Origin: an uncultured bacterium | GTDB lineage: Bacteria > Hydrogenedentota > CAZGCA01 | Direction of reading: 5' to 3' | Length of the DNA: 64,000 nucleotides | NCBI GenBank assembly: GCA_964524145.1 | Contig: CAZGCA010000018.1 | Span: 7,087 to 71,086 of the forward strand | Shown: positions 35,558 to 37,351 of the stretch, in pieces | How the letters are laid out: every line of letters starts with the position of its first letter | Position numbering within the stretch: the stretch's first letter is position 1 | The notes under the pieces: model-generated | Database searches by the model: none | What the model was told of the DNA's origin: nothing | What the model saw: the letters and a program-made list of their open reading frames with translations, nothing else | Translations under genes and position numbers: made by a program

Positions 35558-37351
35558 ATGAACGTGACGGGATTAGGTGCTCGCGTCCGACGGCGGGCGG
35601 ATGCATGGCGTGGTGTGTGCTTCACGCTTGCCGTGGTCGGATTGATTGCGACGGTAGGCCTTGGAACCGCGTCGGCCGATCCGGTGTTGTCGCTGGGTAC
35701 CGCGCAGAGCCCTCCCGGAGGGATTGCAACGCTCTCTGTGCGTCTGGCAGGCAGCGGAGAGTTGAGCGCGGGCGTACGTGCGCGCATTGCGCTGCCAACC
35801 GGCGTCACCGTGAGCAGCGTGCAACTCGGAGCGCTTCTCGATGACTTCACTCTGAAAACGCACCTCACCGAAGACGGCGCTGCGTTGGGGCTGCTGGCGT
35901 ACTCCGGCGAGAGCAGCTTTCAGGCCGGGTCGCGCATCGAACTGTTTTCCGTCGCGCTCGAGGTGGCGCCCGACGCCCCTGAAGGGGTGCAACCCATCCA
36001 ACTGATCGCGGCAGGCAGCGACCTGTCCGATGAAGACGGCGGCCGGCAGATCGCAGTGTCCCTGCAGACCGGGCTGCTCGTGGTAGGCGACGATGTGCTC
36101 CTGGACCCCGACAGCGATGGGCTGACGACGGCGGAAGAACTTGTTGCGGGTACCGATCCGAATAACCCCGACACGGACGGCGACGGTATGCCGGACGGCT
36201 ACGAAGTCACGCACGGTCTTGGTCCGCTGGTCGACGATTCGCAACTCGATTGGGATGGGGACGGGTTGACGAACATCGAGGAGCTAATGGCGGGCACGGA
36301 GCCGAACAACCCCGATACGGACGGCGACGGTATGCCGGACGGTTACGAAGTGGGAATGGGCTACGATCCTTTAAGCAGCGCGAGTGTACCGGTGGTTGGC
36401 GACGTGAATGGTGATGGATTGGTCGATGCTGCCGACGTGCAACTTGTCAGTAATGCGTTGCTGGGCATTGGGACGGCACAGGCGGGAGCCGACATCAACC
36501 TGGACGGCAGGGTAAACGCTATTGACCTCCAGCTGTTGATCAACGCAGCGCTCGGTTACGATATCCGGGAGCGGATCGACTCGCTCGCCCAAATGCTGAC
36601 CGTTTATGTGGACGGAAGCCGTTCCGGGCCGGAAGACGGGACGAGAGCACGTCCGTACAAGACGATTGGCGCGGGCATCGACGCGGCCGCGGCCACACAG
36701 CGTACGATAGTCATTGTCCGTCCGGGCATCTATCTCGAATCGATACAACTCGAGTCGGGAATCATGCTGCTTGGTGAGCGCGGCGCGCACGAGACATTCA
36801 TTACCTGCGAAGGCTCAAACTACCCAGGGCTCGTACTTGCTCCGGACACCGTGGTCCAAGGATTCACCATCGGCGACACGGGAACGGAAGCTGCTGTCGT
36901 AGTGCCTGAAGGTGCAGCGTGTGCAGTAACCAACTGTGTGCTGTTTTCGGGTCGGATGGGCCTGTACGCGTTTACAGGCTCCTCACTGGCGTTCGTAAAC
37001 AACACCGTCGTGCTGAACGACTACGGGCTTGTGGGCGAGCCGTCCGCAAGTTTCGAGATCGTGAATAGCATATTCGCGTTTAACGACGTCGGTATAGCGG
37101 CTCCCGCTAACCCGCTCTCGACGAGTTCGTACAACAACTTCTACCAGAACGGCGCGGATTTCGACGAAGGCGGCCCATCGTTGACTGATATGAGCGAGAA
37201 CCCGCTCTTCCTGAACGTGTACGGGTTGAACCTTCTCCTTGCGCCTGATTCGCCTCTGCGTGACGCGGGCCATCCCGCGACGGAATACAACGATCGAGAC
37301 GGGTCCCGGAACGATCTCGGGTTTGAAGGTGGCCCGCAGGGTATCCCGTAG
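35558..37351 (+). CDS. Secreted cohesin-like + Ca-binding (TSP3-like) repeats + dockerin + DUF1565-type beta-helix protein
   Basis: [43 protein letters not shown] is cohesin-like; [12 protein letters not shown] twice; [57 protein letters not shown]. Confidence 0.8.

Follow-up and report, generated by a model that had tools for sequence, protein, structure and literature searches.

A secreted cohesin–dockerin protein of an uncultured Hydrogenedentota bacterium as a candidate connector for peptidase-like and Rhs proteins

What can a protein that carries both halves of the cohesin–dockerin pair do outside a cellulosome? Ever since such pairs were recorded in all three domains of life, their role in non-cellulosomal settings has remained an open question. 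We addressed it for a 64,000-nucleotide (nt) stretch of DNA from an uncultured bacterium of the phylum Hydrogenedentota (contig CAZGCA010000018.1; hereafter the window, always meaning this whole stretch). Here, the open reading frame (ORF) at positions 35558–37351 of the plus strand encodes a protein of 597 amino acids (aa), the target of this analysis, in which a cohesin and a dockerin are joined in one secreted chain.

The initial annotation of the window had read the target as an adaptor scaffoldin that assembles proteases and toxins. From its domain organization, its relatives, and the dockerins encoded around it, we favor a different view, in which the target would be a monovalent, secreted connector that may chain with itself. 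This reading ranks first of the four that we weighed, at a probability of roughly 0.45; it is followed by the absence of any functional pairing and then, at equal rank, by a classical adaptor and by a matrix-forming protein.

Domain organization of the target and identity of its cohesin

The target consists of a signal peptide, one cohesin, four TSP3 repeats, a type I dockerin, and a β-helix, in this order (Table 1). The start of the signal peptide is identical in an orthologue of 93% identity (P0001), and AlphaFold2 (AF2) predicts a helix at aa 6–33. The TSP3 region is also visible at the DNA level as a direct repeat (36088–36207 and 36232–36351) and is a probable calcium-stiffened linker. 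The C-terminal β-helix makes up ∼42% of the protein. Searching Pfam with the whole protein gave only weak matches to NosD and Beta_helix (aa 444–554), and the isolated domain matched NosD (E 1.1e-5), Beta_helix (E 8e-5), and families of the DUF1565/Pectinesterase-like N-cap type. AF2 places a ladder of β-strands at aa 348–507, with a predicted local distance difference test (pLDDT) score of 70–87, whereas a search of the PDB sequences with the β-helix returned no relatives. The initial annotation, which had called both the cohesin and the dockerin correctly, overlooked this domain of ∼250 residues.

When the isolated N-terminal domain was searched against Pfam, it did not match the Cohesin family (PF00963), even at E ≤ 10, and a word-index search for homologues returned nothing. 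However, an exhaustive phmmer search with aa 41–180 against 1.84 billion cluster representatives retrieved 91 representatives, seven of them at E ≤ 1e-10. Nearly all of these match directly after a signal peptide, at approximately residues 25–165. In a Pfam scan of each protein separately, 32 of the 91 homologues matched PF00963 and 33 matched TSP3_bac. We compared a profile of the family, built from 46 domain segments (alignment A2), with the sequences of the PDB, and the top 19 matches were all cohesins. They include ScaE (4iu2/8ajy, with the best E of 1.5e-8) and ScaB of Ruminococcus flavefaciens as well as 1g1k of Clostridium cellulolyticum and 1aoh of Clostridium thermocellum.

The structure predicted by AF2 from the family alignment is an all-β cohesin model (mean pLDDT 96.6; predicted template modeling score, pTM, 0.90) that assumes the nine-stranded flattened β-sandwich, or jelly-roll, of cohesins. 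Superposition with the PDB by Foldseek returned cohesins for all of the top 50 matches, with template modeling (TM) scores of 0.80–0.85 and E values down to 3e-10. Among these are dockerin-bound CaCohA2 (TM 0.85) and, as the fourth-best structural match, the non-cellulosomal cohesin 2xdh of Archaeoglobus fulgidus (TM 0.80). Because the homologues, the profile, and the fold matches agree despite the missing Pfam match, we regard the domain, on the grounds of sequence and model, as a genuine but divergent cohesin. The cohesin-like region first noted at ∼35680–36080 is therefore real, although of the two Pfam families that the initial annotation had suggested as a check on the protein only Dockerin_1 matches the target, and Cohesin does not match the single sequence. 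It also remains the sole cohesin of the window, since the family profile, run over all six frames, found no second one.

The target cohesin is a divergent member of a family of single, N-terminal cohesins that is widespread and sizeable. Pfam largely overlooks this family, as the 32 recognized representatives illustrate. Its most conserved motifs (alignment A2) are YAGVNAxIxLP and IAYSG, located on strands 3 and 6 of the model. In cohesins, strands 8-3-6-5 form the dockerin-binding sheet, and both motifs would lie on this sheet if the model is correct.

Parts of the target recur in other combinations. A β-helix homologous to that of the target follows the cohesin in three relatives (P0019, P0006, and P0007). 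Moreover, a relative of 56% (P0092) carries the same TSP3–dockerin–β-helix module behind a different, non-cohesin N-terminal region, where its contig ends. The target thus has the appearance of a module-shuffling product rather than of a bare scaffold.

Dockerins of the window and the proteins that carry them

Type I dockerins consist of two tandem segments of ∼22 residues, each with an EF-hand-like calcium loop (Asp or Asn at positions 1, 3, 5, 9, and 12) that is followed by a helix. In the target dockerin, both calcium loops are intact; it scores 49.2 bits at a Pfam cut-off of 22.9 and matches the dockerins 1daq, 2mte, and 2ccl in a sequence search of the PDB. Three further proteins of the window, named A, B, and D here (Table 1), also contain Dockerin_1. 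It is located at the C terminus of A, where it is borderline (E 1.2e-4; 22.6 bits against the same cut-off of 22.9), at the N terminus of B, directly after the signal peptide (E 5e-10), and at the C terminus of D (E 1.3e-11). A hidden Markov model (HMM) of the eight dockerin repeats, applied to the window in all six frames, recovered the eight full repeats at 16576–16731 (A), 17463–17621 (B), 36401–36559 (target), and 45841–45996 (D). Both Pfam (borderline for A) and the repeat HMM are thus in accordance with the four intact dockerin proteins that had been annotated near 16575, 17460, 36400, and 45840.

All eight repeats in the four proteins share the helix VNAxDVQLxINAALG. Positions 10, 12, 14, 15, 18, 21, and 22 are invariant, and variation is limited to positions 7, 11, 16, 19, and 23; of the two target repeats, the second is canonical and the first deviates. 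On the DNA level, the eight repeats are only 52–77% identical. At helix positions 8–23, 338 of the 448 codon pairs specify the same residue, and 173 of these 338 do so with different codons. This DNA identity and the abundant synonymous differences argue against recent gene conversion as the source of the similarity, which we therefore rejected. Because the same residues are encoded by different codons, the similarity points to selection for a shared partner instead, and the dockerin helices, of one conserved subtype on four proteins, are under purifying selection.

The combination of this cohesin family with this dockerin subtype recurs in a minimal natural relative, P0084 (L085 6627–7337), which is otherwise unrelated to the target. 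Its 236 residues comprise only a signal peptide, a cohesin of the target's family, and a dockerin of the same subtype (VNAxD[VI]QFxxNAVLG). A pairing of the target cohesin with the dockerins of the window is supported by the purifying selection on the helices across four proteins, by the single cohesin encoded nearby, and by the combination found in P0084. The P0084 locus (L085; also L086) carries genes for a PMT_2 glycosyltransferase and a sulfatase, as does the window.

Every dockerin partner has a signal peptide. In protein A, β-helices and Ig-like domains precede a C13-like peptidase domain of clan CD, CarboxypepD_reg, and the dockerin; D has five PPC domains and TSP3, followed by the same types of C-terminal domains. 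The C-terminal modules of A and D (∼720 aa; C13-like domain, additional domains, CarboxypepD_reg, and dockerin) are 57% identical, and the N-terminal halves are wholly different, so that the two proteins look like the outcome of module shuffling around a conserved peptidase–dockerin cassette. The motifs VDHG and G[AG]CHSGSF, which correspond to the His-Gly and Ala/Gly-Cys dyad motifs of clan CD, are kept in both.

Protein B is organized into a signal peptide, the N-terminal dockerin, TTR, an NHL propeller, a YD shell, the Rhs core, and a tip of ∼90 residues. It matches RHS_repeat (E 1.7e-56), TEN_YD-shell (E 2.7e-32), and Rhs_assc_core (E 1.9e-18) and thereby displays the YD repeats, the core with its DPxG motif, and the variable C-terminal tip that characterize Rhs/YD-shell proteins; its TTR, propeller, and shell are arranged as in teneurins. 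The tip itself did not match any family, and no obvious immunity gene was found downstream of B. In all four dockerin proteins of the window, Pfam detected neither a catalytic family of glycoside hydrolases (GHs) nor a carbohydrate-binding module (CBM), as the initial annotation had stated for GHs. Of the cargo that it had listed, the Rhs shell is strongly supported; the C13 proteases score weakly, with their dyad motifs retained.

Besides the intact dockerins, the window contains two orphan dockerin tails, recovered by the repeat HMM, and one half repeat, recovered by a regular-expression scan, all three of which had been noticed before. The loop of the half repeat does not score with the repeat HMM. 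Both orphan tails are parts of a minus-strand repeat of ∼288 nt, present in two copies (7299–7585 and 24646–24933) of 74% identity. The repeat combines the terminal ∼45 nt of an ORF for a dockerin with ∼240 nt of conserved downstream sequence, in which no conserved ORF is evident by eye. Each copy lies between divergent genes, ahead of a large gene or gene cluster for secreted proteins on the plus strand (starting at 7948 and 25681). The 240-nt sequence has no match in Rfam, and its two copies are too few for covariation analysis. The repeat might be what a replacement of cargo left behind, or it might have a regulatory function. An ORF of 79 aa (24950–25189, minus strand) ends directly upstream of orphan tail 2; by eye it resembles the N-terminal fragment of a DUF2961-type protein, but it does not match Pfam. 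If this fragment is real, orphan tail 2 would be the remnant of a dockerin-bearing gene with an internal deletion.

Table 1. Features of the target, the dockerins, and the surrounding genes in the window
Feature	Position	Strand	Basis
Orphan dockerin tail 1; terminal helix alone, preceded by an in-frame stop	7542–7583	−	Repeat HMM
Giant secreted protein A; ORF of 2934 aa, likely start near 8056	7948–16752	+	Pfam, repeat HMM, reading
Rhs/teneurin-like protein B; ORF of 2008 aa, likely start 17373	17304–23330	+	Pfam, repeat HMM, reading
Orphan dockerin tail 2; terminal helix alone, preceded by an in-frame stop	24890–24937	−	Repeat HMM
Five genes preceding the target on the same strand, with overlaps or near-overlaps; each product has a signal peptide (domains: Flg_new_2, BACON, PKD)	25681–35526	+	
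Single EF-hand or half-dockerin-like loop in ORF 25681–27138, first gene of the cluster	25951–25986	+	Regular-expression scan
Target: Sec-type signal peptide, aa 1–40	35558–35677	+	Translation: RVRRR basic n-region, hydrophobic core, cleavage at TASA/DP
Target: single cohesin, aa 41–179	35678–36094	+	Remote homologues, profile, AF2/Foldseek
Target: four bacterial TSP3 calcium-binding repeats (two 48-aa units)	36104–36367	+	Pfam TSP3_bac, E 4.4e-16, 4 stretches
Target: internal type I dockerin, aa 281–330	36398–36562	+	Pfam Dockerin_1, E 6e-13; repeat HMM
Target: the two 23-aa repeats of the dockerin	36401–36469, 36491–36559	+	Repeat HMM
Target: right-handed parallel β-helix, NosD/DUF1565-like, ∼250 aa	36593–37351 (including stop codon)	+	Pfam, AF2
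Giant secreted protein D; 1715 aa	45832–50979	−	Pfam, repeat HMM, reading

Possible roles of the target, its relatives, and its gene neighborhood

In the reading that we favor, the target would act as a secreted, calcium-dependent, modular connector, the cohesin of which would be the receptor for the dockerin subtype of the window. Because there is a single cohesin, one connector would capture one dockerin partner (A or D with their peptidase domains, or the Rhs protein B), and its own dockerin would plug into another cohesin. Since the target and cargo dockerins belong to one subtype, that other cohesin might be located on a second copy of the target, and head-to-tail chains would then arise; alternatively, it might be part of a cohesin protein that another region of the genome encodes. 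The β-helix would then be a functional or binding module that is carried along, rather than a passive spacer. Together, these proteins would form a small network, outside the cell or on its surface, for protein degradation and possibly also for antagonism, and not a multi-enzyme scaffold in the manner of the cellulosome.

The shared subtype would also suit a self-assembling matrix or fiber. Here, the cohesin would bind the dockerin of its own protein, either in other copies or as an intramolecular clasp, the β-helices would polymerize into a surface layer or filament, and the neighboring dockerin proteins would use other receptors. The internal position of the dockerin, with a flexible TSP3 linker between it and the cohesin, is compatible with this arrangement, and the minimal P0084 can do little beyond chaining or bridging. 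Nevertheless, the full-length AF2 model does not display intramolecular docking (with its pTM of 0.37, the model neither supports nor excludes it), and a shared receptor more readily accounts for the conservation of one dockerin subtype on four different proteins. We consider a matrix protein improbable.

A classical hierarchical adaptor scaffoldin, as first proposed for the target, would use its own dockerin to reach an anchoring cohesin encoded elsewhere and would tether the proteases and the Rhs protein to the cell surface. The presence of both modules in one chain agrees with such a role, for which the planctosome model and the Coh-Doc-Coh protein of Limihaloglobus sulfuriphilus (see below) provide precedents. 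Repeat 1 of the target dockerin (VDAAD...VSNALLG) is set apart from every cargo repeat by positions 9, 11, 17, and 20, and the difference is kept in the 93% orthologue; the specificity of the target dockerin could therefore differ from that of the cargo dockerins. However, repeat 2 is canonical for the cargo subtype, and neither an anchoring cohesin nor an SLH, LTD, or other anchor module was found in the window. With its one cohesin, the target lacks the multiple cohesins of adaptors and cannot multiply the partners that it binds, and with a β-helix of 250 residues it is probably not a pure, non-catalytic scaffold. A non-cellulosomal network with protease-like and Rhs cargo thus remains a reasonable part of the original proposal, whereas the adaptor role is poorly supported by a single cohesin, a dockerin of the cargo subtype, and a window free of anchors, and we consider it doubtful.

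Several observations weigh against the connector as well. The deviation of repeat 1 is one of them, as is the full-length AF2 model (pTM 0.37), in which the domain arrangement is not fixed and the dockerin is of low confidence; Foldseek returned only cohesin matches for this model. The peptidase nature of the cargo is a further point. Peptidase_C13 matches D above its cut-off of 22.8 bits (25.7 bits, E 1e-5) and A just below it (22.4 bits, E 1e-4), and a search of the PDB sequences with the C13-like region returned no relative. Because no PDB relative is detectable by sequence, the assignment of A and D to the clan-CD C13-like peptidases is plausible but not firm. The 64 kb contain one cohesin and four dockerin proteins, and other cohesins elsewhere in the genome may be the real partners. 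Finally, dockerins may possibly have roles that are independent of cohesins, and many non-cellulolytic genomes reportedly hold dockerins together with few or no cohesins.

The latter points lead to the reading that there is no functional pair at all. The dockerins would be calcium-stabilizing modules or would attach proteins to the envelope or to polysaccharides, the cohesin would bind another ligand, and the co-occurrence of the two would be coincidental. Such a situation agrees with the 1:4 ratio, with what is said of non-cellulolytic genomes, and with a cohesin too divergent for Pfam alone. Furthermore, a homologue search with the dockerin subtype (P0217–P0325) found only short dockerin-only proteins of 41–98 aa, although the ranking of candidates may favor short sequences. 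The relatives with a name are nearly all from metagenome-assembled genomes (MAGs) of Candidatus Hydrogenedentota, some on contigs of 76–510 kb, and the short proteins might represent free-standing mini-dockerins, or else orphan tails of the kind seen in the window. What makes us regard the lack of a pair as unlikely is that the best Foldseek matches are cohesins crystallized with dockerins, that YAGVNAxIxLP and IAYSG are conserved on the presumed dockerin-binding sheet, and that the same cohesin family and dockerin subtype occur together again in P0084.

If the connector does operate as outlined, one could go further and envisage a display system for antagonism or predation. The Rhs cocoon and the legumain-like peptidases would be mounted on connectors that chain into a calcium-dependent stalk or mesh, and the orphan tails would be recombination scars of cargo swapping at conserved dockerin-coding sequence. 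We hold this extension to be speculative and improbable; if true, it would represent a presentation of polymorphic toxins that is independent of a dedicated secretion system.

The target gene closes a cluster of six (25681–37351), the products of which all possess signal peptides. Some domains encoded in the window (BACON, Flg_new_2, and CarboxypepD_reg) are fused to the target's cohesin family elsewhere. Three consecutive products encoded upstream in the cluster (30978–32228, 32225–33232, and 33229–35526, plus strand) share, shortly behind their signal peptides, an N-terminal motif of approximately the form I-x-[YF]-[QE]-G-x-L ... F-x-L-[WY] ... lW ... G-x-F-x-V. The flanking genes are housekeeping genes (dnaK, rpoD, dnaG, and rsmE), and DUF1559/N_methyl and DUF1080 proteins are encoded in the window as well; these proteins, like the names of the dockerin and cohesin relatives, point to an organism of PVC-like or Hydrogenedentota-like affinity. 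The rpoD gene (40146–42374, minus strand) is unusually long; its product has 742 aa, and tandem 66-nt repeats (41999–42286) of 83–93% identity are located in the part that encodes an N-terminal extension. In a comparison of DnaG with one genome per species, the best identities were 38–45% and were scattered over MAGs of Planctomycetia, Omnitrophota, KSB1, and Bacillota, so that DnaG did not fix the taxon. Because no DnaG relative above 45% identity was among the genomes returned, the lineage appears to be poorly sampled.

Sequence of the window occurs in metagenomes of marine sediment and the subsurface. A contig of a marine-sediment metatranscriptome matches 36671–37129 exactly (459 nt, inside the target gene), which suggests that the target is transcribed, with the run type deduced and carry-over of DNA possible. 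There are only a few full-length orthologues (P0001, P0215, P0216, and L088), which hardly differ from one another. A scan of metagenomes with the whole target yielded one orthologue of 99% and otherwise matches to the central region around TSP3 only; two of these central matches were inspected and are TSP3 repeats alone. In one related locus (L001 2616–4582, 89% nucleotide identity), colinearity with the window stops ∼75 nt past the stop codon of the target (window 37428 onwards). An aldehyde dehydrogenase gene replaces dnaK there, so that synteny breaks exactly at the end of the cluster.

Two more distant cohesin loci were inspected for their neighbors. The cohesin relative P0008 is from a Candidatus Hydrogenedentota MAG, and its gene is immediately preceded by one for a protein with a phage tail-collar (Collar) domain (L083). 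P0006, from a Pseudomonadota MAG (L084 10001–12397), contains a cohesin, a TSP3 repeat, a β-helix, and a weakly dockerin-like C terminus, and is located two genes downstream of a SpvB/TcdB/RHS toxin-like protein of 2061 aa without a dockerin (L084 2707–8892). A recurrent link of the cohesin family with Tc/Rhs toxin genes was discarded as too thin, as P0006 is a single case and the neighbor of P0084 is an FG-GAP repeat protein.

Comparison with known cohesin–dockerin systems

A close published counterpart is the planctosome, which was proposed in silico for freshwater Planctomycetes (Nemodlikiaceae) and comprises peptidases that bear dockerins and an adaptor that combines a dockerin with a cohesin (Andrei et al. 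2019, ISME J, PMC6461901). Like the system described here, it is non-cellulosomal, features secreted dockerin-bearing peptidases and an adaptor with a signal peptide, one dockerin, and one cohesin, and has TSP3 in its cohesin proteins. However, the planctosome adaptor is organized as dockerin, hyalin repeat, and cohesin, whereas the target follows the order cohesin, TSP3, dockerin, and β-helix. The cargo of the planctosome consists of M12B and M14 metallopeptidases, in contrast to the clan-CD C13-like peptidases and the Rhs protein of the window. In addition, the planctosome includes an anchoring protein with a lamin-tail domain, P-domains, and a cohesin, no equivalent of which was seen in the window.

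A second peptidase complex was proposed for Cloacimonadota (Candidatus Stygibacter), in which dockerin-bearing C25 and S8 peptidases would assemble on cohesins (Williams et al. 2021, PMC8542988). The likeness lies in the dockerin-tagged cysteine peptidases (C25 gingipain-like, also of clan CD) and serine peptidases, which were suggested to degrade proteins. Its scaffoldin, by contrast, is a protein of 3,755 aa with tandem cohesins, CBMs, and a C-terminal domain of the type IX secretion system (T9SS), and the system includes GH18 and GH57, whereas the window encodes a single cohesin without a CBM or anchor. A survey of 2024 (PMC11557425) also lists the planctomycete L. sulfuriphilus with a Coh-Doc-Coh protein and 13 dockerin proteins that are not carbohydrate-active enzymes. 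The proteolytic analogue of the cellulosome that the initial annotation had in mind is thus a reasonable reading but not a new one, having been proposed in PMC6461901 and PMC8542988; both of these models rest on genome annotation alone.

With the adaptors of cellulosomes (ScaA and ScaH of R. flavefaciens; PMC4959524), the target shares the combination of cohesin and dockerin in one secreted chain, and the fold of its cohesin is nearest to type I and type III cohesins solved together with dockerins. Cellulosomal adaptors, however, are non-catalytic, possess several cohesins and a dockerin specificity distinct from that of the enzyme dockerins, and recruit GH cargo, none of which is apparent for the target.

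Non-cellulosomal cohesins and dockerins have, according to a passage in Chadwick et al. (2022, PMC9012536), long been known and functionally unexplained. The proteins of anaerobic methanotrophic (ANME) archaea described there and the A. fulgidus cohesin 2xdh resemble the target in that single cohesins and dockerins occur without cellulose degradation, sometimes in the same protein. The ANME proteins carry one dockerin and up to five cohesins, and their cargo consists of substrate-binding proteins. Compared with both the A. fulgidus and the ANME proteins, the target differs in phylum, cargo, and domain order.

In Clostridium perfringens, cohesin and dockerin-like modules assemble complexes of toxins and glycosidases (NagH/NagJ dockerin, PDB codes 2jnk and 2ozn). 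There as here, the pairing concerns secreted proteins of a virulence-type or non-cellulolytic kind, and the 2jnk dockerin weakly matches the target dockerin (E 0.17). In contrast to the proteins of the window, however, those of the Firmicute are family 84 GHs; they are not known to include Rhs or C13 cargo or a protein that combines both modules with a β-helix.

Of the 12 papers that a literature search on dockerins together with Rhs, YD repeats, or teneurin listed, none speaks of a dockerin, and a dockerin-tagged Rhs protein was thus not among them. Protein B, if real as such, would link the biology of polymorphic toxins to cohesin–dockerin assembly. Compared with the published models, three aspects of the locus differ: a domain order that contains a β-helix, a cargo of C13-like and Rhs proteins, and a dockerin subtype that, judging from the repeats, is shared by connector and cargo. 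Nothing at the locus is categorically new. With one cohesin, four dockerins of the same subtype on very different cargo, and P0084 at hand, the window is a compact test set and a good, small experimental handle on a question that the known systems share.

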